In this document: positions 10,737 to 44,883 of the stretch, piece by piece
Layout: each line of letters starts with the position of its first letter
Position numbering within the stretch: the stretch's first letter is position 1
Program-made: the position numbers and the translations under genes
The notes under the pieces: model-generated
Database searches by the model: none
What the model was told of the DNA's origin: nothing
What the model saw: the letters and a program-made list of their open reading frames with translations, nothing else
Sequence record: OZ346167.1
Origin: a phage
Length of the DNA stretch: 64,000 nucleotides
Strand: one strand, 5' to 3'

Positions 10737-12908
10737 CGCATAAATGCCATTTTTGGCTTTCTTACGACCTTTTGTAATCTCGTGGAGAAGTTCCTCATCC
10801 TGTGTCTCCCTACAACGAACAATATCTTCTTCCTTGTTCAGACCAAAGTAAATACTGTTCAGTGTATGCGCATCAGTCCCTGTGTAGACTTCATAGAGGT
10901 CGTTCTCAGCATCATAACGAAGATACTTGTCAGTTTCTGGATTAAGGTGCTTATCAAGATGTTTGCAATAATATCTCCCATCTTCTTGCTTGGTAAATTC
11001 TACTGACTCTTTACCTTCAGTTACTGCTTTAGTGAACTCTTTATCACCCATAAAGTTACACAGTAAAACAAGCTGTGCAGAGTTCTGGTCAACAGAAACA
11101 ATGTTAGTCCCCTCTTCACAAATCCACACTGCCCTCATAGGTGCTCCATAGACAGCAGCACCAGACGGTACGTTTACAATACCATATTGTGTCATACGTC
11201 CAGTTGAAGTACCAAACACCATTGCACCAGCACTAAGGCGACCATCAGGACGAATCTGGTTCAACCAACCTTTTTCATCATCCTTTGAGTTCTCAATAGT
11301 TCTGCGTCGGTGCATCAAAGTATAGTACTTAGCAATCTTCTGTCCAAGCTCACCTTCAATCGTATCATAAGATGATTCAGTAAGTTTTGGTGAAGTACGG
11401 ATTAAGCAAGGCTCAAGCAAGTCTGTGTATTTCTTCACAGACCAGTTATGCTCAATGTACTGTACACCTTCATGTTCAACATAACTCAAACCACACCGCT
11501 CAACCATTTCCTGCCACTTAGGATGCTTTGTAATCATCTTTTTATTGTCTTTGAAACGACAAACTTTGACAGGGCGACCATCTGAGTCTTTCTTGTAATT
11601 CCAGTCATCTGGAATCCAACCAACTGATTTCAAGTAGTCTTTAACAACTGCTACCTGAGTCATACGAGAAACTTCAAACTCAATTGGTGTATATGGTGCA
11701 TCAATCAAACCTGTGTAGCGACTTGACTCAAGTTCAAAGTGATTAACAACGTGGCTGTTATAGTACTTCACAGTTTTGACTGTTTTTACTGGCTTCCAGT
11801 CTTTGCATTTCTTACCAATCTTTGCGTTCAACTCATTGCAAATTGCACGAGCATCCTTCATTGCTACAAATCCCTCTTTGTACTCTTCACCAGTTACAGA
11901 GTTGGTTGGTGTATAGCAATTTCTCTTTTCAATGTTAAAAATCTTTGTAGTTGGCTTACCAAATGGCTTGATTTCATATGTCTGCATCTCACCGTTACGT
12001 ACCTGCTGACGATACTTTGTCTTAGGGTACTTGGTAATCCTCTTCAGCCCATCTGCATGACCGAATGCTTCAACATATTCATTCCAAGCTTTTGCAAACT
12101 CTTCTCCAGTAACTTTACCTTTGGTCTTAATAGTTGGAGGAAGATGTGGTTCAACCTCTGAAGCAAGCTCATTAGTCAACTTGTCAAGTTCCTTTACATG
12201 GAACTCCATAAGCTCTTTATCAGCTTTCCAACCATTGATAGCTTGCTGGCTCATCCAGAAAGATGTTTCTTTAGCTCGCATGTAGGTTTCATAAGTGTCT
12301 ATGCCACACTTCTTAAGCTTGAGATACTCGTTATCAAGTGCCCGTTTAGTTTTGGCGTTAATACGGATATCTTCTACGACACGAGTGAAGATTTCTGCAT
12401 TCCACACACCCCAATGCTCAATCTCTGGCTTACGAACACCAACACGAGCACCCCATGCAGCCAAACCATGAGCACCTTTATAACCCTTTGGAGTTGGCCT
12501 ATCCATCCACTGAACACGAGACTGGATAAGAGAATCCTGAAAGAAATTACCCCACGGCTTACATTTTGGATTATCAAAGTTCCATAAATCAGGTGCAATG
12601 TGATTGAAAACCCACCAGTCATAACCGAGACCATTATGGATGCAAAGACGTTTTGCCTTTAACGCAAATTCAACACCTTCACGTAAACCACCTTTGATGT
12701 ACTTAGTGTACTTGTGACCGAGGATAGGCTCATCTGTAAAGACCCATACAGGTGGCTCTTCATCGTCAGATTTATAGTCTGCAAAGGCCATTACGTGAAC
12801 TTTAGTGAACTCAAGGAGTAAACCATCAGTTTCTGTATCACCAACCAAATGTAAGTTTTTAAAATCTACGTTTTCCATTTTTACTCCCTCTAAAATCATT
12901 AACCTCAT
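10695..12908 (-). CDS. DNA polymerase (family A) with 3'-5' exonuclease domain, 5' exon (ORF runs into the intron; true exon probably ends near 10737)
   Basis: exonuclease motif VGDTETDG near N-terminus; ends ...RKKAKNGIYA at start of motif B. Confidence 0.85.
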   Translation of the reverse strand: MRLMILEGVKMENVDFKNLHLVGDTETDGLLLEFTKVHVMAFADYKSDDEEPPVWVFTDEPILGHKYTKYIKGGLREGVEFALKAKRLCIHNGLGYDWWVFNHIAPDLWNFDNPKCKPWGNFFQDSLIQSRVQWMDRPTPKGYKGAHGLAAWGARVGVRKPEIEHWGVWNAEIFTRVVEDIRINAKTKRALDNEYLKLKKCGIDTYETYMRAKETSFWMSQQAINGWKADKELMEFHVKELDKLTNELASEVEPHLPPTIKTKGKVTGEEFAKAWNEYVEAFGHADGLKRITKYPKTKYRQQVRNGEMQTYEIKPFGKPTTKIFNIEKRNCYTPTNSVTGEEYKEGFVAMKDARAICNELNAKIGKKCKDWKPVKTVKTVKYYNSHVVNHFELESSRYTGLIDAPYTPIEFEVSRMTQVAVVKDYLKSVGWIPDDWNYKKDSDGRPVKVCRFKDNKKMITKHPKWQEMVERCGLSYVEHEGVQYIEHNWSVKKYTDLLEPCLIRTSPKLTESSYDTIEGELGQKIAKYYTLMHRRRTIENSKDDEKGWLNQIRPDGRLSAGAMVFGTSTGRMTQYGIVNVPSGAAVYGAPMRAVWICEEGTNIVSVDQNSAQLVLLCNFMGDKEFTKAVTEGKESVEFTKQEDGRYYCKHLDKHLNPETDKYLRYDAENDLYEVYTGTDAHTLNSIYFGLNKEEDIVRCRETQDEELLHEITKGRKKAKNGIYASVAHVKRCELLEA

Positions 12909-18746: not shown

Positions 18747-19793
18747 ATGGAGAAGTACACATTAACAAAACTTCCCGATTCAGTTACACATGTCTTTATT
18801 GACTCTGACAGTATTGCCTATAAAGGTGCTTGTGTAGTTGAGAAAGCAAAGTATAAATATGTCAATAAACTCACAGCAGAAGAGTCTGAGCCATTTGATA
18901 ATGCGAAAGATGCCGCAAGATGGTTAGCAGACCAGAGAATCTTTGTGGAAGAGCTTGGTCTGACATTTGATGAAGATGAATGGGAAAGACAGACTTGGAA
19001 AGAAGCTAAGAGTGAAAAAGAAGCTATCATGGCTACTCAACAGGTTCTTCAGGAATGGCTTAAGTTTGTTGGTAAAGATAGAACTTGGGTGGGTTATTTA
19101 ACAGAGAAAGGTGTGCATAAACATAAAGACATTAAAGGTCTTGAGCACCAATATCAAGGTAACCGCAAAGATGCTGTCACACCAACACACTTAGTTGCTT
19201 GTCGTGAATATCTTTTATCCAGACCAGAGTTCAAACTCTTAAGGGGTGGCTTCGAAGCCGATTCAATCGTAATTGCTAAAGCTGAAAAGATGGGTAAGAA
19301 AGCTGCTCTTATGAGTATTGACAAAGACCTTCGACAAGCTGAAGGTACTTACTGCATTGATATGACCTATGAAAAATCACCTTTAATTTTTATTGCTGAT
19401 AACAACGTTGGTGAAATTTGGGATTGCCCAATAAAATCAACACCGAAAGCTAAGAAGACAGTTGGGGTAGGTTTTAAATTTCTTTGTTATCAAGCTGTGG
19501 CTGGTGATAATGCAGATAACTATTTTGGTTTAAAGGGCGTTGGTAAGGTTGCTGTAATGAAAGCCCTTGAAGGTAAAACTACTTACAAAGAGTGTCTTGA
19601 TGCAATCTATGAACTTTATGCTAAGAAAGAGTCCTACACTTATGTCTCGTGGGATGGTCAAACAATTACCAGAACACCTTTAGAACTAATGCAGCAACAC
19701 TTCTTCTTAGCTTATCAGGAAAGAAATAAGAAAGACGATTTTACTTTTGATAAGTATGGGTGGACACCAAATGTTAACTCAACAAACTCTTAA
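18747..19793 (+). CDS. 5'-3' exonuclease / flap endonuclease (FEN family)
   Basis: acidic nuclease motifs VFIDSDS and H3TH-like LKGVGKVAVMKALEG. Confidence 0.65.
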   Translation: MEKYTLTKLPDSVTHVFIDSDSIAYKGACVVEKAKYKYVNKLTAEESEPFDNAKDAARWLADQRIFVEELGLTFDEDEWERQTWKEAKSEKEAIMATQQVLQEWLKFVGKDRTWVGYLTEKGVHKHKDIKGLEHQYQGNRKDAVTPTHLVACREYLLSRPEFKLLRGGFEADSIVIAKAEKMGKKAALMSIDKDLRQAEGTYCIDMTYEKSPLIFIADNNVGEIWDCPIKSTPKAKKTVGVGFKFLCYQAVAGDNADNYFGLKGVGKVAVMKALEGKTTYKECLDAIYELYAKKESYTYVSWDGQTITRTPLELMQQHFFLAYQERNKKDDFTFDKYGWTPNVNSTNS

Positions 19794-20262
19794 AGAGTAC
19801 CTACATTATGACCCCGAAACAGGGGTCTTTACTTGGATTAAGAAATCTGCTAGACACACAAAAATTGGCTCTGTTGCAGGTACAAACTTAAGAGGGTATA
19901 CCAGAATTTATTTGTTTGGTAAGGGCTATTATGCACATACCCTAGCCGTTCTGTATATGGATGGATACCTACCTGAGTGTGTTGACCATAAAAATCATGT
20001 AACACTAGACAATCGCTGGGTAAATCTTAGGGCATGTACGTTATCAGAGAACCAATGTAATAGGTTGCTCAATAAGAACAATAAATCAGGTGTTAAAGGT
20101 GTGTACTACAAAAAACAGTATGGTAAGTGGTCTACACAGATAACTTTTAAGAAAAGGGTCTACTTCTTCGGCAACTATGACACTATTGATGAAGCAGCAG
20201 AGGTTGTAAATAGGGAACGTCAACGTTTACACAAAGAGTTTGCTAATAAAGGTGATGAATGA
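19771..20262 (+). CDS. HNH homing endonuclease with AP2-like domain (paralog of 9373..9939)
   Basis: LHYDPETGVFTW..VDHKNH..N..GVKGVYY..GKW. Confidence 0.75.
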   Translation: MLTQQTLKEYLHYDPETGVFTWIKKSARHTKIGSVAGTNLRGYTRIYLFGKGYYAHTLAVLYMDGYLPECVDHKNHVTLDNRWVNLRACTLSENQCNRLLNKNNKSGVKGVYYKKQYGKWSTQITFKKRVYFFGNYDTIDEAAEVVNRERQRLHKEFANKGDE

Positions 20263-20759
20263 GAAAAATAAAAGGTTTTGGCAATTGCCCTGAATATGGA
20301 CATTGGGTTTCACTATGTGGTGAAGTTGACCCAGCAAAGCACTTTGGTTTTGTCTACCTAGTGTACTGCAAAAAGACTGGACAGTACTATTTGGGTAAGA
20401 AACAGCTTAACAGTGTGACCAAAAGAAAAGTTGCTGGGAAGACTCGGAAGAAGATAGTCACTAAGGAAAGTGATTGGATGACTTATGAGACTTCTTCTGA
20501 GTATATTAAAAAAGATATTGAGAGTTTTGGAAAAGAATTTTTTGACTTTTACATTATTCAGACCTACTACACAAAAGGTGGCCTAGTCTATGGTGAAGCA
20601 AACCTTCAACATAAATTCGATGTAATGACAAAAAGGATTGACTCTAAGCTCAGACTCTTCTACAATGCCAATATTGCAGCAATTAAGTTTATCACTAAAG
20701 AAACTTATGAAGATGCTGAAAAAAGAATCCATAAGGTAATGAAAGCAAATTATGCTTGA
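20259..20759 (+). CDS. GIY-YIG family endonuclease (seg-like)
   Basis: FVYLVYCKKTGQYYLGK matches GIY...YIG spacing; ATGA overlap with upstream stop. Confidence 0.65.
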   Translation: MRKIKGFGNCPEYGHWVSLCGEVDPAKHFGFVYLVYCKKTGQYYLGKKQLNSVTKRKVAGKTRKKIVTKESDWMTYETSSEYIKKDIESFGKEFFDFYIIQTYYTKGGLVYGEANLQHKFDVMTKRIDSKLRLFYNANIAAIKFITKETYEDAEKRIHKVMKANYA

Positions 20760-26545: not shown

Positions 26546-27745
26546 ATGAACAAAGTACAGATTATTAAAAAGAACGGCTCACTTGAAGAACCTGATATCA
26601 AAAAAGTTTTAGCAGCAGTCACAAAGTCAGCTAATAGGGTTGGGTATAAAGAACTCCCACCAGATGTTACCCAAGCTCTTGAGTCAGCATTTATGAGGAT
26701 TCTGGTAAAATCCACTAAGCAGAATAATTTACTCATTTCAGTAAATGATATTCACAGTATTGTTGAGGGTGCTTTGGCAGAAGTCAATCACGAGATTTAT
26801 GAGTCTTACTCAACATATAGAAATTACCGTAAAGAAGTTGCTCAAAATTGGGATGAACTCTACCAGAAGACCAAAGATACACTCTTCTTAGGTGACAGAG
26901 AGAATGCTAACTTTGACAGCAGTTTAATTTCTACAAAAGGTTCAATTATTCGTGGTTATCTGACTAAAGAAATCTTTAAACAGTACCATTTAACACCAGA
27001 GGAACTTGAAGCCATTGAAAAAGGGTTTATCTATATCCATGATTTAAGAGACCTAATTTTTGGTGGTATCAACTGTTGCCTGTTTGACATTGGTAAAGTC
27101 CTGAAAGGCGGCTTTGAAATGTCTGGCATCGAATATTGTGAACCAAAGTCTGTACTGTCGGCCTTACAGGTTATTGGTGACGTAGTTCTTTCAGCAACTG
27201 CACAGCAATTTGGTGGTTTTACTTTAGCAGAGATTGATAAGGTACTTGTACCGTATGCTAAGAAGTCTCTACGCTATCATGCTGAGAAAGCAGCATCTTA
27301 TGGTATTCCTAAAGAACATTACCACAATTATGTCATGGAGCAGCTACAGATTGAACTGACTCAAGGTTTCCAGTCACTTGAAATGAAGCTAAATACTGTA
27401 CCTTGTAGTCGTGGGGATTTTGCATTCACAACTTTGACATTCGGGTTACTTGACTCAGATATGTCCAATGAAGATAACCGACTGCAATATATGATTGCAA
27501 GTACTCTCCTAGATGTTCGTATGAATGGACAAGGTAAGAGCAAGAAGCCTGTTGTATTCCCTAAACTGGTTTATATCTATGACCAGAAGAGACACGATGA
27601 GAATATCTGTCAAGGACACCTGTACAGTAAAGCCATTGAGTGTTGCTCTAAAGCAATGTATCCAGATTTCTTAAGTGTATCTGGTCATGGTGCTGTAGCA
27701 GAAGCTTTTGAGCGTTCTGGCAAGGTAATTTCGCCGATGGGTTAA
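26546..27745 (+). CDS. nrdD: Anaerobic ribonucleotide reductase, 5' exon
   Basis: ATP-cone N-terminus; reading frame broken by intron after ...VISPMG. Confidence 0.85.
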   Translation: MNKVQIIKKNGSLEEPDIKKVLAAVTKSANRVGYKELPPDVTQALESAFMRILVKSTKQNNLLISVNDIHSIVEGALAEVNHEIYESYSTYRNYRKEVAQNWDELYQKTKDTLFLGDRENANFDSSLISTKGSIIRGYLTKEIFKQYHLTPEELEAIEKGFIYIHDLRDLIFGGINCCLFDIGKVLKGGFEMSGIEYCEPKSVLSALQVIGDVVLSATAQQFGGFTLAEIDKVLVPYAKKSLRYHAEKAASYGIPKEHYHNYVMEQLQIELTQGFQSLEMKLNTVPCSRGDFAFTTLTFGLLDSDMSNEDNRLQYMIASTLLDVRMNGQGKSKKPVVFPKLVYIYDQKRHDENICQGHLYSKAIECCSKAMYPDFLSVSGHGAVAEAFERSGKVISPMG

Positions 27746-28490
27746 CAGGCTCTATAGCTCATCTAAAACGTGCCTAAACAGGGAAACTCTACAGGTGTAG
27801 ACAATCCTGTGCTAAATGATGTACGATGTAAGAAACTATACAATATAGGAGTCTTACATGCCAAACTATCACGTCACTGAAGATGGAAAAGTCTTTAGGG
27901 AAAATGGTGTAGAGCTTACGCAGTGGAAATCCAACACTGGGTATATGAAAGTGAGGTTTTACGGTAAGAAGAATCGTGACATGTATGTCCACAGGTTAGT
28001 TGCTGAGAAATATGTACCTAACCCGAATAATCTTCCAATTGTAAAACATAAGGACGATAACAAACTAAATAACCACGCATCTAACTTAGAATGGGGTACT
28101 CATTCTGAGAATGCTAAAGAGGGTTATGAGAACGGATGTTACAAGTTCCACAAGCGTTCATATGCCGTGAAAGCCACACACAAAGTGACAAAGGAAGTTA
28201 TTGTTACTAAGTCAATACGAGAGTTGTCCAATATACTTGGACACAATCGCAAGACCATCTCTTCAATATTGAAGGGTGTAAAAGAGCATAATAACTTCGA
28301 ATATGAGTTTGAATACATCTAAATGCCGAACGACTAACCGTGATGAATGTAGCGGTGTAGGGTCAAGCGACTCGAAATGGTACGCTACTTAGAAATAAGT
28401 AGAAGATATAGTCTGGACTTACTGGCGACAGTAAGCAGCTTGAATAAAGCGGGGTAAGCTTAGCGAACTTACCTGAACAACAAGTGTAGA
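27746..28490 (+). mobile_element. Group I intron in nrdD carrying an HNH homing endonuclease ORF; boundaries approximate
   Basis: CTAAACAGGGAAACTCTACAGGTGTAGACAATCCTGTGCTAAAT resembles my recollection of the T4 td intron core; S-like AGATATAGTC in 3' part. Confidence 0.75.
27858..28322 (+). CDS. Intron-encoded HNH homing endonuclease
   Basis: HRLVAEKYVPNP...HKDDNKLNNHASNLEW HNH core. Confidence 0.75.
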   Translation: MPNYHVTEDGKVFRENGVELTQWKSNTGYMKVRFYGKKNRDMYVHRLVAEKYVPNPNNLPIVKHKDDNKLNNHASNLEWGTHSENAKEGYENGCYKFHKRSYAVKATHKVTKEVIVTKSIRELSNILGHNRKTISSILKGVKEHNNFEYEFEYI

Positions 28491-29432
28491 GCGTTTTTAT
28501 CACCATACCATAACGAATATGGTGAAGAGTTTTATGTAGGTCGTGCTAACATTGGTGCTGTATCTTTGAACTTACCAATGATTTACCAGTATTCTAAAGA
28601 GAATGGCTTAGATTTCTGGAAAGAGCTTGATAAGTACCTAGAAATGATTCGCAGCTTCCACAAGAAACGTTACGAAATGATTGCTAATATGCCAGCAAGT
28701 TCTAACCCTCTTGCATTCACACAGGGTGGTCTGTACAAAGGGAATAAGAAACCTACTGACAAGGTTGGCTGGGATATCGTGAAGTCCTTCACAGCTTCTT
28801 TTGGGGTTACTGCGCTTGATGAGCTATCTGTTCTTGCTGAAGGTAAACGACTTCATGAAGTTGGAAGCTGTAGTTTTGCATATGATGTTCTGGAATATAT
28901 CAACATGAAGACTGAAGAGTTTAAAAATGAAGATGGCTTCTTATATGCAGTCTATGGCACTCCAGCAGAATCACTTTGTGGAACTCAGCTAAAACAGTTC
29001 AGAGATATGTTTGGCGTTATCAAAGGCGTTTCTGACAAGGAATACTTTACAAACAGTTTCCATATGAATGTTGCAGCAGATATTACACCATTTGAGAAGC
29101 AGGACTTAGAAGAACCCTTCTTCCATATCTGTAGAGGCGGCAGAATCCAGTATGTAAGAGTGGCTAACCCAGAAAACTTATCAGCACTTAAGAGTTGTAT
29201 TACAAGAGGGATGTTGAAAGGTTTCTATCAGGGACTTAACTTTGACTTAGCAATCTGTGAACATTGTGGTAACAGACCAAAGGCTGATGTTGAAGAATGT
29301 GAGGTTTGTCATTCACACGATATCTCTGTGATTAACAGGGTGTGCGGATATTTGGGATGGACTAAGATTAAAGGTGAATCCCGAATGAATGATGCAAAAA
29401 TCGCTGAGATTCGTGACAGAATTTCTATGTAA
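28491..29432 (+). CDS. nrdD: Anaerobic ribonucleotide reductase, 3' exon (glycyl-radical domain)
   Basis: frame opens at 28491; GRANIGAVSLNLP block; C-terminal Zn site CEHCG..CEVCH and glycyl radical motif RVCGYLG. Confidence 0.85.
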   Translation, partial: AFLSPYHNEYGEEFYVGRANIGAVSLNLPMIYQYSKENGLDFWKELDKYLEMIRSFHKKRYEMIANMPASSNPLAFTQGGLYKGNKKPTDKVGWDIVKSFTASFGVTALDELSVLAEGKRLHEVGSCSFAYDVLEYINMKTEEFKNEDGFLYAVYGTPAESLCGTQLKQFRDMFGVIKGVSDKEYFTNSFHMNVAADITPFEKQDLEEPFFHICRGGRIQYVRVANPENLSALKSCITRGMLKGFYQGLNFDLAICEHCGNRPKADVEECEVCHSHDISVINRVCGYLGWTKIKGESRMNDAKIAEIRDRISM

Positions 29433-32670: not shown

Positions 32671-32941
32671 AGAAAAGTGGGAGATTTTACCATTAGTCAG
32701 TGAAGGCGGCAATGGTTGTGAAATGTACATGATACGTGGTCATATTCCAGAGCCAATTGCACTTGAGATGGTAAATAATTATACAGATGGTTCCTGCAAA
32801 GACTTAGGAGAACCAACTGTCAAGCAGCAATGGGTAAAGCCTGTGCCAGACAGCACAGGTAACTGTAGTGTACTTTATCACGTTGTAGACCCTGTAAAAT
32901 GCAAATCTGCAATGGCAGTAACAAACGTAACTTTTGATTGA
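32663..32941 (+). CDS. Hypothetical protein
   Basis: 92-aa ORF. Confidence 0.5.
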   Translation: MAKEKWEILPLVSEGGNGCEMYMIRGHIPEPIALEMVNNYTDGSCKDLGEPTVKQQWVKPVPDSTGNCSVLYHVVDPVKCKSAMAVTNVTFD

Positions 32942-32952
32942 GAGAGAAAACT

Positions 32953-33834
32953 ATGAAAACATCTATCCGTGTTACAATTCATTCACCAACTAAAGGAACT
33001 CATGAAGAAGAGTTTAACATCATTCAATTCCCTTCTGGTGAGATTGGTGGACACTTTTCACAAGAGCTAGTTGATTTTACTGCTTATGCAGCATCCTCCA
33101 TTAACAATGTGGTTATGATTGTAAAAGGCTACGACAAGGACACATTGTTTGCTGTGGCACTTGCTAAAGAAGCAATTGATGATTTGATTCCTCATGATTA
33201 TGCCTTAAAGACTGTCATCTTTTACTACTTACCAAATGCACGATATGACCGTCACATGTTTAAAGGTGATGCAGCAGCTTTGAAGGTTTTTGCTAAACAG
33301 GTTAATGCAATGGGGTTTGGTGCAGTCTGTGCAGTTGACCCTCACAGCTATGTACCAGATAACCTGTTTAACTGCTTCCAGAGTATTCCTCAAAAGGAGA
33401 TTGCAGTCCACTATGCAAATGACCCACTGGTTGATTACTTAGTAGCCCCAGATGCAGGTGCTGCTAAGAAGGTTGCAGAGACCGCTAAAGAGGTGGATAA
33501 ACCATATATCACAATGTCTAAGGTGCGTAACCTTAAGACTGGTGAAATTACTGGTATGCGAATCCTTGATGATGTTGATTTGACAGATAAAACCGTCATG
33601 ATTCTGGATGATATCTGTGATGGTGGTCGAACCTTCATAGAAGCAGCTAAGCATCTTCGTGAAGCAGGTGCAAAACGTGTGGAACTTTATGTAACACATG
33701 GTATCTTCTCTAAAGATGTTGAAAACCTTCTTGACAATGGTATCGACCATATTTACACTACAAACTCTTTAGGCGAAGCTAAAGACCGTGGCTTAACACA
33801 TTATGGTCAAGTTACTGTAGCAAACCTTGATTGA
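32953..33834 (+). CDS. Ribose-phosphate pyrophosphokinase (Prs) homolog; candidate ADP-ribose pyrophosphokinase of a NARP1-type NAD+ reconstitution pathway
   Basis: phosphoribosyltransferase-type binding loop VMILDDICDGGRT; immediately upstream of NAMPT homolog. Confidence 0.7.
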   Translation: MKTSIRVTIHSPTKGTHEEEFNIIQFPSGEIGGHFSQELVDFTAYAASSINNVVMIVKGYDKDTLFAVALAKEAIDDLIPHDYALKTVIFYYLPNARYDRHMFKGDAAALKVFAKQVNAMGFGAVCAVDPHSYVPDNLFNCFQSIPQKEIAVHYANDPLVDYLVAPDAGAAKKVAETAKEVDKPYITMSKVRNLKTGEITGMRILDDVDLTDKTVMILDDICDGGRTFIEAAKHLREAGAKRVELYVTHGIFSKDVENLLDNGIDHIYTTNSLGEAKDRGLTHYGQVTVANLD

Positions 33835-33938
33835 AAGTTTATAGGGGCTTGAAAGCCCCATTTTGAGAGAGATTAAAAGATGACTAAATCACTTTATGCA
33901 GTACCAGCAGGTTTAAACGCAGATGCTTACAATATCTT

Positions 33939-35291
33939 ATGTTGAACCTGACACCACGTAGTGACAAATGGTTTAACAGCCCTTTGGCAATTGACGGTGT
34001 AGTGGCTTTTGGTATTCAACGTTTCGTTAAAGATTACTTGATAGACCATTGGAACGCCACTTTCTTTGAACGTGACAAAAAAGAAGCAATTGACGAAATC
34101 TTAGAAGTCATGAACGGCGTTATGGGTAAAGATGCTATTGGTCGAGAGCATTGGGAAGCACTTCACGACTTAGGTTATCTACCAGTTGAAGTATACGCTG
34201 TAGAAGAAGGCACAGTTGTCCCGATGCGTGTCCCAATGATTGTCTTCCAGAACACTGTTTCAGGTTTCCATTGGGTAGCAGGTTATCTGGAAGATGCTTT
34301 CTCTGCTGAGATTTGGAAGGCTTGCACCATTGCAACTATTGCATTGCATTATAAACGCATCTGTAAGAAGTGGGCTGACCTTACTTGTGACAACGACTTA
34401 CATTTACCTTATCAGTGTCATGACTTTGCTATGCGTGGTATGTCAGGCTTTACTGATGACGCATTTAACGCTGTAGGTCACTTAACCAGCTTTAAAGGAA
34501 CTGATAGCTTCCCTACTGTGTATACGGCTAAACGAATCTATGGACAGTCCTACCCAATCTCTGATATTGGTAGCTCTGTACCAGCCACTGAACACTCTGT
34601 AATGTGTGCAAACATTGCTTGGGAAGGTGGTAATGAATTGATTGAAGAAGAAAGACGCTTTAAAGGTGAGTTACAAACCTTCCGTCGCTTCTTAACAGAA
34701 ACTTACCCAACTGGTATTGCAAGTATTGTTTCAGATACTTATAACTTCTGGAGAACTGTGTCAGAAATCTTACCAGCACTCCGTAAAGAGATTATGGAAC
34801 GTGATGGCAAACTGGTAATTCGGCCTGACTCTGGAGACCCTGTACATATTGTCACAGGATATAAAGCAATCCACTTAGAGTGTGCTAAGAAGGCTTATTA
34901 CGAACACTTAAGCAAGCTTGAAGCCAGCGACACAATGTTGAATGCTGTTCTGAACATGAAGCTTGAAAACATCAATTATGGTATTGCTGGATGGCTACTG
35001 TCAGAAGGCTACGAAATGGTTGTTGACAGAGAAGACTTTGAAGTTGCTGATACAGTGCTGTTGAAAAACGCTTATATGGTTGGTTCTGCAAACGTTGTAA
35101 CACGTCCTGTAGCTGAGATTGATGGAGCTATTAAGACACTGTACAACATCTTTGGGGCTTTGTATCTCACCTTGATGTTGAAATTGATGAAGAAGGTTAC
35201 ATCATTGGTTGGAAGAAAGTATCTACTCGTGAAGGCAAGCTGGTTGACTCCCACACCTACAGAGTACCTAATGATTTGGGTAACATTGTAG
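33939..35291 (+). CDS. Nicotinamide phosphoribosyltransferase (NAMPT/NadV) homolog; candidate NARP1 Namat; both ends uncertain
   Basis: NAMPT blocks HDFAMRGMSGF, HLTSFKGTDS, SVPATEHS, VSDTYN, IRPDSGDP; C-terminal 45 aa look non-native. Confidence 0.7.
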   Translation: MLNLTPRSDKWFNSPLAIDGVVAFGIQRFVKDYLIDHWNATFFERDKKEAIDEILEVMNGVMGKDAIGREHWEALHDLGYLPVEVYAVEEGTVVPMRVPMIVFQNTVSGFHWVAGYLEDAFSAEIWKACTIATIALHYKRICKKWADLTCDNDLHLPYQCHDFAMRGMSGFTDDAFNAVGHLTSFKGTDSFPTVYTAKRIYGQSYPISDIGSSVPATEHSVMCANIAWEGGNELIEEERRFKGELQTFRRFLTETYPTGIASIVSDTYNFWRTVSEILPALRKEIMERDGKLVIRPDSGDPVHIVTGYKAIHLECAKKAYYEHLSKLEASDTMLNAVLNMKLENINYGIAGWLLSEGYEMVVDREDFEVADTVLLKNAYMVGSANVVTRPVAEIDGAIKTLYNIFGALYLTLMLKLMKKVTSLVGRKYLLVKASWLTPTPTEYLMIWVTL

Positions 35292-35602
35292 AAATGCCAC
35301 GTTGGATGGTTGATAATAACCGTAACGTGACTTGCTCTCAAGGTCTTCATGTTGGTGCTTGGGATTATGTTCGTTGCTTCTCAGGTGATACAATTCTGAA
35401 GGTTCGTGTCCATCCACGAGACGTTGTATCCGTACCAACTGATTACAACGATATGAAGATGCGCTCGTCTCGTTATGAAGTTGCAGCAATCGTTGATAAT
35501 CAACGTAAAGTGCTGAAAGCATGGGATGGCAAGACTGAAGCTTTGCATGTCATCGTTGGCACTGCTGGGGAACTCATCTCTCAGCGTAAACGTGAAATCT
35601 AA
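35276..35602 (+). CDS. Hypothetical protein, or C-terminal continuation of the NAMPT homolog in an alternate frame (frame opens at 35135 without ATG)
   Basis: 108-aa ORF overlapping NAMPT 3' end; protein-like sequence precedes its first ATG. Confidence 0.4.
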   Translation: MGNIVEMPRWMVDNNRNVTCSQGLHVGAWDYVRCFSGDTILKVRVHPRDVVSVPTDYNDMKMRSSRYEVAAIVDNQRKVLKAWDGKTEALHVIVGTAGELISQRKREI

Positions 35603-35616
35603 TAAGTAATTTCTTA

Positions 35617-35646
35617 AAAGGCTGCTTCGGCGGCCTTTTTTATTTG
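35617..35646 (+). terminator. Rho-independent terminator
   Basis: GGCTGCTTCGGCGGCC + TTTTTTATTT. Confidence 0.6.
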
Positions 35647-35702
35647 TATTTTGTGCAGAGTACTGTATAATTGTTGTCACGATAAACTAAACAGGAGAAC
35701 CA

Positions 35703-39250: not shown

Positions 39251-40030
39251 ATGGGTATTGTAAAAGTTGTAAAAGGTAACTTACTGGCTGCCTTCAAAAA
39301 CACAGATATTGAGTTAATTGCTCATGGTTGCAACTGTCGTAACCTCATGGGTGCTGGAATCGCTCAAAAAATTGCTAAGATTTTCCCAAAAGCTGAAGAA
39401 GCTGACCGGAAATTCCATAAAAAGTTTGGCTACAGTGCTCATGATATCGGATACCAGATGGTGGGTGAGGTGTCACATGCTCGAACGGAGTACGGTTACA
39501 TTTTTAACCTGTATACACAGTTGGATGTTGGGAAGTGTGCATCATACCGATACTTAGTGGAGTCACTAGAAAAACTCCGTAAGTTTTGCTGGCTGCACAA
39601 CATTCGTAAGATTGGTTTACCCATGATTGGTGCAGGTATCGGTGGTTTAGATGCACAAGCTGTGAAAAGCCTCATTAATAGTGTTATGTACAACGTTGAT
39701 GTGTACCTATATGTCTATGATGAAGCAATGGCAAGTGTAGTTACCCCTAAGTATGCTACCTCAGCACCACAATTCTATGATGGTGTCGTGCTCAGTGATG
39801 GTAAGTCTAACCATGTTACCCTCTATCAGCTTGTTGATGGTGAAGTTGAGGTTAGTTACCCTCTGGTTAGTGAGATGGGTATGTGCAATAGTGAAATGTT
39901 CCCAGTTGACCCGTTTGGAAGATATGAAGGTGTATTCTTTGATAACTACCCAGCAGCGTACATCTACACAACAAATCAGGATGAAGTTCACTACTTGCTG
40001 TATTCTAAAAAGTTCAAATTCATAAGCTGA
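39251..40030 (+). CDS. Macro domain protein (ADP-ribose binding/processing)
   Basis: macro-domain hallmark AHGCNCRNLMGAGIA and second glycine-rich loop GLPMIGAGIGG. Confidence 0.7.
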   Translation: MGIVKVVKGNLLAAFKNTDIELIAHGCNCRNLMGAGIAQKIAKIFPKAEEADRKFHKKFGYSAHDIGYQMVGEVSHARTEYGYIFNLYTQLDVGKCASYRYLVESLEKLRKFCWLHNIRKIGLPMIGAGIGGLDAQAVKSLINSVMYNVDVYLYVYDEAMASVVTPKYATSAPQFYDGVVLSDGKSNHVTLYQLVDGEVEVSYPLVSEMGMCNSEMFPVDPFGRYEGVFFDNYPAAYIYTTNQDEVHYLLYSKKFKFIS

Positions 40031-40707: not shown

Positions 40708-40913
40708 TGCTTTACAGTCGTGAATTGATGGTTACAACTAACGTTAACACAAAGGTAAAACGTTTTTACATGCAAATTTGTGGCGTATGGTCTAGAATAT
40801 CAGAGGCTGACTATTGCAACTATGTAGAAACAGCTATAAACTCTAATTGCTATCTTACAAGAAATACAAGAAAGTACATAAGACAGACAGCAATTTACTA
40901 CTACGATAAATAA
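40707..40913 (+). CDS. Early small protein
   Basis: ATG overlapping upstream stop (TAATG). Confidence 0.5.
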   Translation: MLYSRELMVTTNVNTKVKRFYMQICGVWSRISEADYCNYVETAINSNCYLTRNTRKYIRQTAIYYYDK

Positions 40914-40999
40914 AGTACTTTACAAGGGGCTTATAGTTCGATAAAGTAAGCCCCAGATAAAGAGCTTTACCACTAAATCCTAAACTGGAGAACTTAAAA
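40914..40999 (+). promoter_or_regulatory. Type-1 intergenic element: hairpin GGGGCTTA..TAAGCCCC + conserved leader AGATAAAGAGCTTTACCACTAAATCCTAAACTGGAGA
   Basis: reiterated at 41384, 41762, 42362, 43435, 44226; stem shows compensatory changes. Confidence 0.6.
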
Positions 41000-41380
41000 A
41001 TGGCATACCGCGCACCGAAATTCATCAATAAAGAAAATTTTCGTAATGTATTAGAGAAGGCGCTTGATGAAAAATTTAACGGCAAAATAATTGTTGTTCA
41101 CTCGTTCAATTTCAAGTATGATATCAACGGGAATAAAATCAACCATTACACGGCAACCATGTTAGATGGCAATCTTTCAAGTGAAAAAGCCGTACTGAAT
41201 GCACTTGCTGGACGTGGAAAAAATCTGATAAGATGTGATAAGAGACGTTATCAGGGCGGCGCATATGGTTATGATGATGCTATCTATCATCTTGAAAATA
41301 TGGGCTATCAAGTAGAAAAAGCTGGAGTATCACAAATCATCGGGAGCGATGGTTATGTAACAATCTTCAAAATTAACTGA
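41000..41380 (+). CDS. Early small protein
   Basis: 126-aa ORF behind type-1 element. Confidence 0.55.
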   Translation: MAYRAPKFINKENFRNVLEKALDEKFNGKIIVVHSFNFKYDINGNKINHYTATMLDGNLSSEKAVLNALAGRGKNLIRCDKRRYQGGAYGYDDAIYHLENMGYQVEKAGVSQIIGSDGYVTIFKIN

Positions 41381-41383
41381 TAA

Positions 41384-41469
41384 AGTACTTTACAAGGGGC
41401 TTATAGTTCGATAAAGTAAGCCCCAGATAAAGAGCTTTAACACTAAAATCCTAAATTGGAGATTCTAAA
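41384..41469 (+). promoter_or_regulatory. Type-1 intergenic hairpin/leader element
   Basis: same sequence family as 40914..40999. Confidence 0.6.
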
Positions 41470-41763
41470 ATGGCTATTATCAGAAACGTTGTAATTACTG
41501 CAAAGACTCGTGATGACGCTCGCGCTATGGCTAAAAAGTTATGCGGGAAAGTGGTTGACAACGGAAAACAATCTGCTGTAAGATGGGGCGTAAAGGTTGA
41601 TAAACATTTGAAGTTAAAAAATTCACCGATAAACCTTTTTACATGTGTAAACACTATCGGGAAGACAAATGTATACACGAAAAAGGCATATATTAGACGC
41701 GTAGCATTAACATCCCCCATTCGTACAATGAGAAGTTATGCAAAGCTAAAAATTAACAAATAA
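41470..41763 (+). CDS. Early small basic protein
   Basis: 97-aa ORF. Confidence 0.55.
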   Translation: MAIIRNVVITAKTRDDARAMAKKLCGKVVDNGKQSAVRWGVKVDKHLKLKNSPINLFTCVNTIGKTNVYTKKAYIRRVALTSPIRTMRSYAKLKINK

Positions 41764-41848
41764 AGTACTTTACAAGGGGCTTAAAAGCTGGTATCTTAAG
41801 CCCCAGATAAAGAGCTTTACCACTAAATCCTAAACTGGAGATTCCAAA
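41762..41848 (+). promoter_or_regulatory. Type-1 intergenic hairpin/leader element (loop variant)
   Basis: GGGGCTTAAAAGCTGGTATCTTAAGCCCC. Confidence 0.6.
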
Positions 41849-42361
41849 ATGAAAACTGTAGACGCTACCTTTGAAGTTGTAAAAGAAAAATTCACCATTA
41901 TTTATGAAGCTGTTAATTGCTACGAAGCAAGCCATAATCTTGATAATTGGAAGTTTACAGATGACCATCAAGGCGGCGTGACTATTAAAAACCCTAACTG
42001 TCAGCGTAACGATTTTAAATATGCAATCCCTTTAAATTATAGCCTTAAACAGCTTTCTAGTGACTATGCAAAACAAGGCCGGGAAAACCCATCAAAAGAG
42101 GCTTACACCAGCTTACAGAAAGAACTAGAAAGAGATTTAGAGGCTTCAGAATACAACCTTGCCGCGAAAGTTATCGATGCAAATGGCAACACGGTTTTAG
42201 AGAGTTTTTATCTAGGATATGCCTTTGATTGGTGCTATAGTGACGGCGATGATTTAGATGACAGACTAAAAGAGGAAGTGAACAATTCAGACGCAGAATC
42301 TGAAGTATTAGAACGTCTGGAATCATTAAAAGACTCAGTGATGAATATCTTTAAGAACTAA
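41849..42361 (+). CDS. Early protein
   Basis: 170-aa ORF. Confidence 0.55.
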   Translation: MKTVDATFEVVKEKFTIIYEAVNCYEASHNLDNWKFTDDHQGGVTIKNPNCQRNDFKYAIPLNYSLKQLSSDYAKQGRENPSKEAYTSLQKELERDLEASEYNLAAKVIDANGNTVLESFYLGYAFDWCYSDGDDLDDRLKEEVNNSDAESEVLERLESLKDSVMNIFKN

Positions 42362-42448
42362 GTAGATTTCTTTACACGGGGCTATCAAGCTGATAAGATA
42401 GCCCCAGATAAAGAGCTTTACCACTAAATCCTAAACTGGAGATTCAAA
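42362..42448 (+). promoter_or_regulatory. Type-1 intergenic hairpin/leader element (compensatory stem variant GGGGCTAT..ATAGCCCC)
   Basis: covarying stem with conserved flanks. Confidence 0.6.
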
Positions 42449-42745
42449 ATGAAATTATCAAATAAAGTCCGTGAAAATCTAAGCAAGTTACTCAACAAAA
42501 TTGATTTTATCGAGACATCAAGGAATAGCCACGATGTTATGGAATGGTTACACGGAAAAATTAAAGGCCGTCGTGTAGTGATTTGCTTATGGAATAGTTG
42601 CAGGGAGTATAAAAAACCTGTATTGCAAGTCAATATTTATGATGATACTTTTAAAAGTCCAGTAAAGTCTAAAAGTGATTTATTAGAATCCTATGAGATA
42701 GCTGTAAGTGGCAAAGTATCACGTAAAGAGGAATCACCATGCTAA
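42449..42745 (+). CDS. Early small protein
   Basis: 98-aa ORF. Confidence 0.55.
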   Translation: MKLSNKVRENLSKLLNKIDFIETSRNSHDVMEWLHGKIKGRRVVICLWNSCREYKKPVLQVNIYDDTFKSPVKSKSDLLESYEIAVSGKVSRKEESPC

Positions 42746-43071
42746 TGACTGGCATCACTGCAATTATAGCCATTTTCGCGCTCTATAAGGCATATAAAGC
42801 CTATAATCTAGCAAATAAGGCAATCACACAGCAGGTTAGCAACAGCCTTGTAGAGAGCTTTCTAGAGCGTTTGAGTGATGAACAATTAAAACGGTTAGAA
42901 ATGAGCTTCAGATTTCAATCAAAAACTTATCAAATCAGCGACATTTTCAAAGATGATTTTCAGCTAGTCGATGATTATAATGCTCTGATAAATGCTTTAA
43001 ATATCAGTGACTTAAAAGACTATTACGCTGTAATTGTTCAAGAATTAAGCAAACGAAAACAAAACTGTTGA
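42739..43071 (+). CDS. Early small membrane protein
   Basis: N-terminal TMD ITAIIAIFALY. Confidence 0.5.
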   Translation: MLMTGITAIIAIFALYKAYKAYNLANKAITQQVSNSLVESFLERLSDEQLKRLEMSFRFQSKTYQISDIFKDDFQLVDDYNALINALNISDLKDYYAVIVQELSKRKQNC

Positions 43072-43161
43072 CACTGATTTCTAGATAGATTAAATTACAC
43101 ATCAACGGCGAGGGAATGAACTTCCCCACTAAGTAAAGTCCTTAAACTAGGAGATTCAAAA
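43068..43161 (+). promoter_or_regulatory. Type-2 element: TTGACA-N17-TAAATT promoter + leader hairpin
   Basis: -35 overlaps upstream stop codon. Confidence 0.6.
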
Positions 43162-43434
43162 ATGTATACTACTAACAACGGTCGCACTTTGAACGTAACC
43201 CTGCACCACTATGTGAACGGTGTAATGCACTTCGAGGATTTACAAGCCGAACAACATATCTTAGATTGGCAACTTGCAGGACTCCAAAAAACTGCTACCG
43301 GATACGGGAAAAAGATTCCAACTAGCTGGAAAGTATACTACGAAGGACGTTTGCGCAGAATTTATCAGGATGTATATAGCAATAGCACAACAAGTTACAT
43401 CATGGTAAAAGGTAAAAAATTACACTTAGTATAA
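43162..43434 (+). CDS. Early small protein
   Basis: 90-aa ORF. Confidence 0.55.
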   Translation: MYTTNNGRTLNVTLHHYVNGVMHFEDLQAEQHILDWQLAGLQKTATGYGKKIPTSWKVYYEGRLRRIYQDVYSNSTTSYIMVKGKKLHLV

Positions 43435-43519
43435 AGTACTTTACAAGGGGCTTATAGTTCGATAAAGTAAGCCCCAGATAAAGAGCTTTATCACTCAATC
43501 CTAAATTGGAGATTCTAAA
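43435..43519 (+). promoter_or_regulatory. Type-1 intergenic hairpin/leader element
   Basis: same family. Confidence 0.6.
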
Positions 43520-43924
43520 ATGGCTATTAATAATCGTGAGTTATCAATCTTAAAAGCACGTTTGACCGTTAACCGGATTAATGTTATTACGTCATCAGCG
43601 CCTGATGAAACATTGCACAACATTATCGGAAAGATTCAAAGCGTTATCTTAGACGTTGAAAACGTAAAAAGTTCATTGGCTGACGTTGCAGCAGGTATCA
43701 CGCTAGACGGTGCGCAATATGAAATGGCTGACATGTTAGGCAAATCGAAGGTAATGAATAAAGAGCTTGATTTAAAAATGTTTCGATTTGCCGTGAAAGT
43801 ATGGTTATCTGTCGAGTATGACGCTAATTTTGCAATCGCTGATTTCTTTGCCACTTGGTTACAACGTAATTTGACAAATCATGATTTTCGTGGTGTCTGT
43901 GATGCAATTTATGCAGAACTCTAA
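43520..43924 (+). CDS. Early protein
   Basis: 134-aa ORF. Confidence 0.55.
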   Translation: MAINNRELSILKARLTVNRINVITSSAPDETLHNIIGKIQSVILDVENVKSSLADVAAGITLDGAQYEMADMLGKSKVMNKELDLKMFRFAVKVWLSVEYDANFAIADFFATWLQRNLTNHDFRGVCDAIYAEL

Positions 43925-43933
43925 AAAATTTTG

Positions 43934-44024
43934 TTGACACTGGTTTTTAGATAGATTAAATTACACATCAACGGGAGGGAATGACCTTCCCCACTAAATA
44001 AAATCCTAAACTGGAGATTCTAAA
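43934..44024 (+). promoter_or_regulatory. Type-2 element: TTGACA-N17-TAAATT promoter + leader hairpin
   Basis: near-identical to 43068 element. Confidence 0.6.
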
Positions 44025-44228
44025 ATGGCTATTATTAACGGCTTACACATTGAAACAACTCACATCAAAGATATTAAAGTTGGTGATGTAGTCCTTTCCC
44101 ACGGCGTAGAAAAAACTGTCACTGCAAAGGATATCAAAGAGGATTCTTTCATGGGTAGGACTCTCTTCGGTGATTCTTATTGCTTAGGGTATCTTGCAGT
44201 CTTAAAAGTTGTCAAAAATAACAAATAA
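44025..44228 (+). CDS. Early small protein
   Basis: 67-aa ORF. Confidence 0.5.
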   Translation: MAIINGLHIETTHIKDIKVGDVVLSHGVEKTVTAKDIKEDSFMGRTLFGDSYCLGYLAVLKVVKNNK

Positions 44229-44316
44229 AGTACTTTACAAGGGGCTTATAGTTCGATAAAGTAAGCCCCAGATAAAGAGCTTTACCACTAAATCCTTAAA
44301 CTAGGAGATTCAAAAA
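44226..44316 (+). promoter_or_regulatory. Type-1 intergenic hairpin/leader element
   Basis: same family. Confidence 0.6.
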
Positions 44317-44883
44317 ATGAAATGCTATCACGGCACTACTCTGAAAAACTTTGTAAACCTGCTTAAAGGTGGCAACAAGCCGGAAGGTATCTGGAACTGC
44401 TCTTACATGGATGATTGTTTTTACGTTTACCCGATGGATAAGATTATCAAGACGGAATGTCTGGAAGATGAAGAAGCTTCTTACATCCGTGAACGCTGCA
44501 TTCAAAACGCTTTAGAGTCGGGGCTTATTACGGCAGCTTTCCAAATGGAAACGCAGGAAGTGATTGTAATTGAGATGGATATCCCAGAGGAAGAACTTGA
44601 GGACGATTATTCTTGTGACAACATGAGCGAAATCGCCAGCTTTACCGGTTACTTTGATAAAGATTGGATTATTGGTATTCACTCAACGAAATTTAGTGCA
44701 ATGTATGCGCCATTCTTTGTACCTGATACAACTAACCGCAATTTGGGCTATATTGACGATGATTTGTTGAGTATTGCAAAAATTGTACAGGATAGCGGTG
44801 ATACTTCTTCTGTGTTTTGTGACCTGCTGGATAAAATTACCGAGAATCTCACAGAGCGCAATCTAAGCGACTTTTTAGACTAA
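44317..44883 (+). CDS. Early acidic protein
   Basis: 188-aa ORF. Confidence 0.55.
   Translation: MKCYHGTTLKNFVNLLKGGNKPEGIWNCSYMDDCFYVYPMDKIIKTECLEDEEASYIRERCIQNALESGLITAAFQMETQEVIVIEMDIPEEELEDDYSCDNMSEIASFTGYFDKDWIIGIHSTKFSAMYAPFFVPDTTNRNLGYIDDDLLSIAKIVQDSGDTSSVFCDLLDKITENLTERNLSDFLD

Follow-up and report, generated by a model that had tools for sequence, protein, structure and literature searches.

An intact adps gene beside a probable namat pseudogene in a Felix O1-like phage

Introduction

When a phage genome carries a Prs-like gene immediately followed by a Nampt-like gene, does it encode a working route for rebuilding NAD+, or only the appearance of one? The 64,000-nucleotide stretch of phage DNA analysed here (record OZ346167.1; hereafter the window) raises this question at 32953-35291, where the first-pass annotation had placed two adjacent plus-strand ORFs, both of which we recovered, and had likened the pair to the phage pathway NARP1. 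The operon in which NARP1 was discovered consists of genes 79-80 of phage Bas63 (Osterman et al., 2024; bioRxiv 10.1101/2024.02.11.579819). In intact relatives, Adps pyrophosphorylates ADP-ribose (ADPR) with ATP to give ADPR-PP, and Namat joins ADPR-PP and nicotinamide into NAD+, a rebuilding by which the phage survives defences that deplete NAD+, among them SIR2-HerA, Thoeris I and DSR. Both enzymes, and the active site of each, are required for NAD+ synthesis and anti-defence, and Bas63 from which genes 79-80 have been deleted becomes sensitive to SIR2-HerA and no longer yields ADPR-PP (Osterman et al., 2024). The evidence for this chemistry comes from Bas63 infections in vivo and, in vitro, from the SpbetaL1 enzymes and not from a purified Felixounavirus protein; the Bas63 Adps did not purify (Osterman et al., 2024). 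The comparisons reported here indicate that the locus is most probably the known NARP1 pair with adps intact and namat reduced to a pseudogene by two independent lesions, the second step of the pathway having been lost.

Results

By collinearity, the window is a Felixounavirus genome, that of a Felix O1-like phage, with a NARP1-type gene pair. It is collinear with the Bas63 record, beginning at position 20833 there and continuing round to 222, and its adps/namat pair (Table 1) is orthologous and syntenic to Bas63 genes 79-80. The likeness to NARP1 is borne out by this orthology and synteny and by published tables in which wV8 and Felix O1 proteins, near-identical to those of the window, are listed as Adps and "Adps-associated" Namat (Osterman et al., 2024). 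The gene family assignment is correct, already published, and adds no new biology. The absence of an NMNAT had been read as favouring NARP1-type chemistry, and that reasoning holds: Pfam scans of the window's ORFs, other than the large genes named by homology, found no NMNAT (CTP_transf_like) or Nudix domain, and an NMNAT annotation is absent from Bas63 too. By tblastn the window covers 65 of the 70 Bas63 ORFs that are 90 aa or longer, a measure of coverage only and not of reading-frame integrity, and those uncovered outside the large deletion described below are the intron-split polymerase and one ORF without a match; judged on these 70 ORFs, no further large loss of genes is seen in the assembly.

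Table 1. Features of the adps-namat locus and of the distal Macro-domain gene, in window coordinates.
Feature	Position	Strand	Remarks
adps	32953..33834	+	intact, 293 aa; "ribose-phosphate pyrophosphokinase" in relatives' annotation
intergenic hairpin	33844..33859	+	GGGGCUUGAAAGCCCC then AUUUU; between adps and namat
namat 5' stub	33880..33945	+	native start, 17 native codons including Asp15 and Tyr17, frameshift, stop (MTKSLYAVPAGLNADAYNILC, then stop)
37-bp deletion junction	33929..33933	+	ambiguous within CAA; namat codons 18-30
Namat-like ORF	33939-35291	+	450 aa; native part plus out-of-frame tail
Namat fragment	33939..35156	+	equals Bas63 Namat residues 33-438
rIIB 3' remnant	35138..35602	+	Bas63 RIIB residues 216-367; no upstream start codon of its own; tblastn
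large deletion junction	35150..35157	+	microhomology CTTTGGGG
out-of-frame ORF tail	35157..35291	+	44 nonsense codons through rIIB DNA, then stop
terminator-like hairpin	35616..35639	+	closes the present adps / namat' / rIIB' unit; pattern scan
Macro-domain protein	39251..40030	+	259 aa; "putative phosphatase" in relatives

The upstream ORF, recognised at first reading as Prs-like and containing VMILDDICDGGRT, matches Pfam Pribosyltran and Pribosyl_synth, and its product is 98% identical to wV8 gp136 and 77% identical to Bas63_0079, in each case over the full length and in a single frame (tblastn); the exact protein also occurs in phage MN850603.1 (100%). Lys190 of its flexible loop lies within MSKVRN, and its PRPP-type loop comprises residues 215-227. 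Against NCBIfam and Pfam, the protein belongs to the Prs family at the broad subfamily level only, passing TIGR01251 (122.5 against a cutoff of 113 bits) while remaining below every NCBIfam Prs equivalog cutoff (best NF002095, 105 against 296 bits). Its near-identity (98%) to the wV8 protein, for which the published Adps tree records the Namat association as "Yes" (Osterman et al., 2024), places it in the Adps clade, distinct from housekeeping Prs. A solved Adps structure from which Adps-specific residues could be defined was not found in the PDB. A namat homologue lies well within ten genes, the true namat start being directly adjacent, 45 bp downstream.

That start is the site of the first lesion. 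The namat gene of relatives encodes 593 aa, and its start corresponds to window position 33880, 59 bp upstream of 33939. Residues 1-17 of wV8 and Bas63 Namat match frame 1 at 33880 and the remaining gene lies in frame 3 (tblastn), which leaves a 5' stub of 21 codons. Alignment against wV8, heid, Bas63 and Shigella phage Tf reveals a 37-bp gap; the extra 37 bp are present in all 253 of 253 related phage records, and once the missing bases are restored, the sequence aligns with Tf in a single piece at 98.5%. In the ancestral allele, the deleted stretch is flanked by the 13-bp imperfect direct repeats CAGATGCTTACAA and CAGATGCTACGCAA, and slippage between them, at codons 18-30, probably produced the deletion, which shifts the frame. 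The first-pass annotation had reported that about 45 N-terminal residues of the NAMPT homologue are absent; they are indeed missing from the ORF in frame, but because the 37-bp deletion near 33930 shifts the frame, and not as a trait of the family.

At the other end of the gene, namat codon 438 leads directly into the 3' third of rIIB in the wrong frame, and the translation runs ...NIFG across the junction into ALYLTLMLKLMKK...VTL and a stop, against ...NIFGGTTNSKGF... in relatives. Relative to heid and Tf, 4,153 bp are missing, and 4,503 bp relative to Bas63, which differs from the heid/Tf-type interval in having one extra small gene (0081) within it; gone are the 155 last Namat residues, two small genes, rIIA and the first 215 rIIB codons. 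The alignments on either side share 25 bp, and the octamer at the junction is found at both parental sites, in namat and in rIIB of heid, consistent with a 4.15-kb microhomology-mediated deletion having joined namat codon 438 to the last third of rIIB. The rIIB remnant matches PHROG 609 "RIIB lysis inhibitor" (profile positions 970-1048 of 1055), its DNA matches the rIIB region of many relatives, and tblastn found no match in the window to Bas63 0081, 0082 or rIIA (0083 being too short to inform). Barring assembly error, the phage is predicted to be rII-null and should lack rII function. In phage T4, classical genetics established that spontaneous rII-region deletions extend into neighbouring non-essential genes. 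There as here, a single deletion with a short-homology junction takes out rIIA, a portion of rIIB and dispensable genes next to them; T4 belongs to a different phage family from Felixounavirus. The 3' lesion of namat had gone unnoticed at first reading.

Both lesions rest on a single sequence, in which assembly or consensus error may be involved. Neither was found in other phages among 253-293 related records (megablast/blastn, phage collection), none of which covers the large-deletion junction; that exact junction is absent from IMG/VR (exact scan), the lesions have no match in complete E. coli genomes, and the 450-aa product has no record in the exact-protein index. Such uniqueness among hundreds of relatives, and the suspicious look of two lesions in one gene, would suit a reading in which the lesions are artefacts of assembly or consensus, or belong to a minority sub-population, and the real phage has an intact NARP1 and rII region. 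We consider this unlikely: an assembly collapse would need a far longer match than an 8-bp identity or a 13-bp imperfect repeat, both junctions bear the signature of real slippage or illegitimate recombination (repeats, microhomology), and the other gaps among the 70 Bas63 ORFs are limited to the intron-split polymerase and the one unmatched ORF. Nor are two lesions in namat unexpected, because the second would be neutral after a first, inactivating one, whichever of the two that was.

For the 37-bp deletion, a different origin was at first attractive, namely that it is the repair scar of an HNH homing endonuclease whose gene many relatives carry between adps and namat. The endonuclease gene lies 14 bp upstream of namat in 62 relatives, a recoded patch sits exactly over namat codons 18-34 in the endonuclease-positive genomes examined (4 of 4), and in the window the sequence left of the deletion is of the endonuclease-negative type and that on its right of the patch type. 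This origin was demoted and now appears distinctly improbable, since the same allele occurs in endonuclease-less phages: the patch allele is present in 92 records against 62 for the endonuclease gene, and phages without the latter, such as Tf, share the window's exact flanks with the 37 bp intact. Because they do, slippage between the Tf-type allele's own repeats would be sufficient to explain the deletion.

What the two lesions leave of namat is recognisable. The downstream ORF contains HDFAMRGMSGF, FKGTDS and RPDSGDP, from which it had been called NAMPT-like, and matches Pfam NAPRTase. The stretch equal to Bas63 Namat 33-438 lies in a tblastn match of 94.6% over query residues 30-456, which extends about 18 residues beyond the large-deletion junction. 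By phmmer the fragment lies far nearer SpbetaL1 Namat (9w5x, E = 6e-80) than human NAMPT (about 1e-27), with human and Xanthomonas Nampt spanning about 1e-27 to 1e-31. The Nampt-like catalytic core is present, with HDFAMRG, KGTDS and IRPDSGD at window-ORF positions 161, 186 and 294, and the fragment keeps the SCL loop (K-W-F) as well as F163, R166, D189, R295 and D297, which correspond to F189, R192, D215, R306 and D308 of SpbetaL1 Namat, a protein with crystal structures 9W5X and 9W5W (Lan et al., NAR 2026, PMC12774641). Felixounavirus Namat is about 100 residues longer than that of SpbetaL1, with an insert between two conserved blocks, and its clamp loop is four residues longer; when intact, it shares the clamp-helix aromatics Y490 and Y494.

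The losses are as specific. In contrast to SpbetaL1 Namat, the window's version lacks in-frame D13/Y15, the G-D-A and G-S-F loops, the clamp helix and T-R-D. In Bas63 numbering (SpbetaL1 in brackets), the missing residues are D15/Y17 (D13/Y15), whose counterparts are encoded only in the out-of-frame stub 33880-33945, G458-D459-S460 (G360-D361-A362), G488-S489-Y490 (G390-S391-F392), Y494 (Y396) and T496-R497-D498 (T398-R399-D400); the ribose-phosphate loops, clamp helix and T-R-D, at Bas63 458-498, all fall within the deleted 439-593, and tblastn found no match to 439-593, and no second namat copy, anywhere in the window. The lost SpbetaL1-equivalent residues contact nicotinamide or NAD+, Asp13/Tyr15 stack nicotinamide from the partner protomer, and clamp double mutants or R306A abolish anti-defence activity (Lan et al., 2026). 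Against NCBIfam NF006629 (cutoff 405 bits), the window ORF scores 276.6 bits and Bas63 Namat 468.2. From the loss of these residues, we infer that the truncated product would be inactive.

With the frame of namat shifted at codon 18 and the gene cut short after codon 438, only one of the two NARP1 enzymes is intact, and the working two-enzyme pathway implied at first reading is contradicted by Asp15/Tyr17 standing out of frame and by the loss of the whole C-terminal quarter of Namat. An intact, working NARP1 with a naturally N-terminally shorter Namat would accord with adjacent Adps-type and Namat-type ORFs that carry the core motifs and with the failure of Pfam scans to find an NMNAT among the window ORFs; it is nonetheless very improbable, every relative having a 593-aa Namat that starts 59 bp upstream, the N-terminus having been lost here by frameshift, the C-terminal 155 residues with their essential loops and clamp helix being deleted, and the ORF lying under the NCBIfam full-length cutoff. 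Classical salvage, in which Prs and NadV would make PRPP and then NMN and the host would complete NAD+, draws on the relatives' database names, on the Pfam/NCBIfam matches to the Prs and NAPRTase/Nampt families and on the formation of NMN from PRPP by Namat in vitro (PMC12774641; bioRxiv 10.1101/2024.02.11.579819), but has a well-nigh negligible probability, given that Bas63 overcomes defence in a host without pncC and nadR and yields ADPR-PP, that the SpbetaL1 gene-79 homologue gave no product in a PRPP-synthetase assay and converted ADPR and ATP to ADPR-PP (Osterman et al., 2024), that the window Adps misses every Prs equivalog cutoff (105 against 296 bits, for example), and that the transferase is truncated here anyway.

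Discussion

If namat is a pseudogene, only the first step, that of Adps, would still be encoded in this genome, and Adps alone could at most convert ADPR to ADPR-PP, without yielding NAD+. The NARP1 pathway as encoded here is probably dead, and this copy is predicted to be NARP1-null, barring assembly error; we infer that the phage is unable to restore NAD+ and that, where hosts carry NAD+-depleting defences, it should resemble Bas63 delta79-80. Compared with the NARP1 of Bas63 (JohannRWettstein), the genus, the gene order and the position after nrdG and before rIIA are the same, whereas the window's namat has the 37-bp frameshift and lacks its last 155 codons, and the neighbouring genes through the first 215 rIIB codons are missing. 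What this adds to the published account of NARP1 is modest. A gene-presence call of "NARP1" would here be a false positive for function, and anti-defence annotation should compare each gene with full-length relatives to see whether it is intact. Provided that the deletions are real, the phage would be a natural knock-out without namat and rII, comparable to the engineered Bas63 delta79-80, and usable for probing Adps on its own.

Two other phage systems bear comparison. In NARP2 of Vibrio phage KVP40 (NadV Nampt plus NatV NMNAT/Nudix), a Nampt-family transferase likewise raises NAD+ during infection, but NARP2 requires an NMNAT, of which the window ORFs scanned contain none, and has no Prs-like Adps partner such as is found here; the window does not fit NARP2 or a classical NadV system. 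As in NARP1-AP (Adps-Adpp-Namat, Vibrio phage Gary; bioRxiv 10.64898/2026.01.28.702374), an Adpp homologue is encoded in the window, with the difference that it lies outside the operon, at a distance of about 4 kb downstream in the window, against about 8 kb in intact relatives, with unrelated genes and terminator-like hairpins between; the NARP1-AP tables include no Escherichia phages (bioRxiv 10.64898/2026.01.28.702374). This Macro protein scores 28.9 bits against Pfam Macro (cutoff 22), and its N-terminal part of about 155 aa is homologous to the NARP1-associated ADPR-1''-phosphate phosphatase Adpp (BLASTP E = 2e-13 to Gary Adpp; E = 1e-17 to the NARP1-associated Macro protein of phiPsa397), the C-terminal part of about 100 aa being extra with respect to Gary Adpp. 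It is possible, on this homology, that the Macro protein is an accessory to the NARP1 pathway from outside the operon, and that Felixounaviruses might also handle ADPR-1''-phosphate. The broader proposal that Felix O1-like phages run a dispersed three-gene NARP1 (Adps, Namat and a distal Adpp-like Macro phosphatase with an additional C-terminal domain), of which the window is a natural variant that retains Adps and the Macro protein but is without the Namat step and rII, has a low probability; were it true, it would point to a Namat-independent use of Adps and Macro, for instance in draining ADPR-derived metabolites or signals, or alternatively to an advantage in shedding Namat and rII on some hosts.

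Two smaller features of the adps-namat boundary may be added. The hairpin between the two genes, which the terminator pattern scan did not flag, has a fold energy of -12.6 kcal/mol (z = -3.0), is conserved in wV8, heid and Bas63, and is kept in relatives without the homing endonuclease. Downstream of it, the stub ORF overlaps at its end with the ATG at 33939, and re-initiation at this ATG could give a truncated protein.

The adps and namat genes

The NARP1 copy in the window is decayed, with adps intact, namat doubly broken, and the latter adjoining a 4.15-kb deletion that also takes out rIIA and most of rIIB. The first-pass annotation, which called the pair NARP1-like, named the right system, one already described from this very group of phages, but took a decayed copy for a working one. 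Both ORFs with their quoted motifs are present, and the reported lack of an NMN adenylyltransferase held, neither CTP_transf_like nor Nudix domains being found in Pfam scans of the other window ORFs (where Serglycin matches are artefacts from Gly-Ser linkers); the second ORF is, however, different from what that observation implied.

Window 32900-35650 has matches in 260 phage records, nearly all of them from Felixounavirus phages like Felix O1 and wV8; the top match has 96.7% identity over just 82% of the query. Bas63 (Escherichia phage JohannRWettstein, MZ501086.1) is collinear with the entire window, from record position 20833 through the record end to position 222. Gene order in relatives is nrdG, small ORFs, an 882-bp "ribose-phosphate pyrophosphokinase", a 1,782-bp (593 aa) "nicotinamide phosphoribosyltransferase", 2-3 small ORFs, rIIA, rIIB, an SLT-like protein and polynucleotide kinase.

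Deletion of Bas63 genes 79-80 (adps-namat) abolishes resistance to SIR2-HerA, ADPR-PP is detected in wild-type Bas63 infections only, and host pncC and nadR are not needed for the effect; SpbetaL1 Adps converts ADPR and ATP to ADPR-PP, from which, with nicotinamide, SpbetaL1 Namat yields NAD+, each active site being required (Osterman et al., bioRxiv 10.1101/2024.02.11.579819). In the supplementary tables of that study, wV8 and Felix O1 are represented among Adps (Namat association "Yes") and among "Adps-associated" Namat. The window Adps is a full-length protein with 98% identity to its wV8 counterpart and falls below every NCBIfam Prs equivalog cutoff, passing a broad subfamily model alone, while the Namat fragment matches SpbetaL1 Namat (structure 9w5x) with E = 6e-80 versus ~1e-27 to 1e-31 for human and Xanthomonas Nampt. 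Because of these table entries, the Adps identity and the closeness to SpbetaL1 Namat, membership of the already published NARP1 lineage is established at the level of orthology. Across the genus, Adps is mosaic in its N-terminal half: in the window this half (32953-33400) has DNA identity of 100% to MN850603 and 95.5% to wV8 but only ~72-73% to Bas63 and SBA-1781, whereas identity to all four is 90-99% in the C-terminal half.

Coordinates of features in the window and, where stated, in relatives
Feature	Position	Strand	Assignment
adps ORF	32953-33834	+	Pfam Pribosyltran + Pribosyl_synth
namat ORF	33939-35291	+	Pfam NAPRTase, profile positions 1-132/239 only
HNH_3 endonuclease gene in relatives	L010 6891-7382; L012 1001-1492		insertion site = window ~33833-33865
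Macro-domain protein, 259 aa	39251-40030	+	Pfam Macro; "putative phosphatase" in relatives (Bas63_0095)
Group I intron	10515-10798	-	Rfam RF00028, 64.2 bits (gathering score 50)
DNA polymerase gene, two pieces	12908-10737; 10468-9914
nrdD, two pieces	26546-27745; 28566-29432 (whole 26546-29432)	+	anaerobic ribonucleotide reductase
Endonuclease within nrdD	27858-28322		HNH_3
Endonuclease ORF	19747-20262	+	HNH_3 + AP2 domain
Endonuclease ORF	20259-20759	+	SegE-like GIY-YIG
Repeat region	40900-44320	+
tRNA cluster	57425-63551	+	23 tRNA genes

The 5' lesion of namat

Namat of wV8 and Bas63 aligns in two window frames, residues 1-17 at 33880-33930 in frame 1 and the remainder from 33930 in frame 3, and 37 bp are missing from the window DNA directly after GCAGATGCTTACAA. 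The short N-terminus noted at first pass is not natural: the ATG at 33939 chosen by the ORF finder is internal Met33, and the native start, 33880, now heads a 21-codon stub (MTKSLYAVPAGLNADAYNILC, then a stop). A 131-bp probe matched 253 related records, every one of which has the extra 37 bp, and the window with these bases restored gives a single-piece match to Shigella phage Tf (98.5%). To the right of the deletion lies a distinct allele of codons 18-34 (...AAGGCATCACATATATATCAGTATCCAGATGCTACGCAATATCTTATGTTG...), in which the deleted segment is flanked by CAGATGCTTACAA and CAGATGCTACGCAA; since these bracket it, slippage during replication is enough to explain the loss.

Between adps and namat, 62 relatives (VpaE1, SBA-1781, MN850603 and Felix O1-type phages among them) have a gene for a 163-aa HNH_3 homing endonuclease; the window does not, and retains the short hairpin that occupies this intergenic space in phages lacking the endonuclease. 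The carriers examined have a densely recoded patch across namat codons 18-34, which may be the target site of the endonuclease. As the deletion falls in this patch beside the insertion site, a "homing scar" origin was tested, and is not needed: endonuclease-less Tf has the codon 18-34 allele with the 37 bp intact.

The 3' lesion and loss of rII

Similarity to namat ends at 35157, and the window from 35133 on matches the 3' third of rIIB plus genes beyond, the alignments overlapping because namat (...CTGTACAACATCTTTGGGG followed by GAAC...) and rIIB (...CTGTAGAACAACTTTGGGG followed by ATTC...) have CTTTGGGG in common, inside a looser 19-bp similarity between the two genes. Compared with phages heid and Tf, the window has lost 4,153 bp here, and compared with Bas63, 4,503 bp. 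A tblastn search with Bas63 proteins 0081, 0082 and RIIA finds nothing in the window (0083 is an uninformatively short query), and one with Bas63 RIIB recovers residues 216-367 only, a fragment assigned to the RIIB C-terminus (PHROGs). The junction is out of frame, with 44 nonsense codons after Namat residue 438 and a stop at 35291. It is spanned by no related phage record, its exact sequence was not found in IMG/VR, and E. coli genomes gave no match; the 450-aa namat product is not found in an exact-protein index where the 293-aa Adps is present.

Both lesions are known from one sequence alone, yet it is improbable that they are artefacts, since both junctions carry the short-repeat signature of biological deletions and the sequences shared there fall well below the length that could mislead an assembler. 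Moreover, among 70 Bas63 ORFs (90 aa or longer, from the collinear part, scored for tblastn coverage and not reading-frame integrity), losses and truncations are confined to the NARP1-rII locus, bar the intron-split DNA polymerase and one ORF without a match. Classical T4 rII deletions remove rII together with a dispensable neighbour, a pattern that the window's loss of rII plus a dispensable neighbour resembles.

Consequences for Namat

The nicotinamide- and NAD+-binding residues of SpbetaL1 Namat have been listed, and R306A or clamp double mutants abolish its anti-defence activity (Lan et al., PMC12774641). Numbering was checked on the Namat alignment, with D13, Y15 and G360-D361-A362 at the expected places.

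Fate of Namat functional residues
Element	SpbetaL1	Bas63	Window
Nicotinamide-stacking pair	D13, Y15	D15, Y17	out of frame
Core	F189, R192	F195, R198	retained
Core	D215	D221	retained
Core	R306, D308	R327, D329	retained
Ribose-phosphate loop	G360-D361-A362	G458-D459-S460	deleted
Ribose-phosphate loop	G390-S391-F392	G488-S489-Y490	deleted
Clamp helix	Y396	Y494	deleted
Partner-protomer contacts	T398-R399-D400	T496-R497-D498	deleted

Against the NCBIfam full-length model (cutoff 405), the window namat ORF scores 276.6 bits and Bas63 468.2. We infer that active Namat cannot be made from the window copy, which would render NAD+ reconstitution impossible; Adps alone could still spend ATP on producing ADPR-PP.

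Other features

Over its ~155 N-terminal residues the Macro-domain product is homologous to Adpp, the NARP1-associated ADPR-1''-phosphate phosphatase, with 28% identity and E = 2e-13 to the enzyme from Vibrio phage Gary; it also aligns with a Macro protein that accompanies NARP1 in Pseudomonas phage phiPsa397 (32%, E = 1e-17); unlike Adpp, its gene lies outside the NARP1 operon and has an additional C-terminal part. The paper describing Adpp and aRES, a RES-domain NAD+-depleting defence, has no Escherichia phages in its tables (bioRxiv 10.64898/2026.01.28.702374).

The group I intron splits the DNA polymerase gene, Bas63 having no insertion there, and nrdD is split by the segment encoding its HNH_3 endonuclease, Bas63 nrdD being likewise annotated as a two-piece join. 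The HNH_3 + AP2 ORF is an insertion relative to Bas63 (~500 bp added), with the GIY-YIG ORF directly downstream. The tRNA genes are clustered with small HNH-type ORFs among them, as in other Felixounaviruses. In the repeat region, many copies of a ~90-110-bp sequence lie between the small ORFs and are 86-97% identical to several intergenic sites of Bas63; the sequence is probably a promoter or terminator cassette repeated in the early region.
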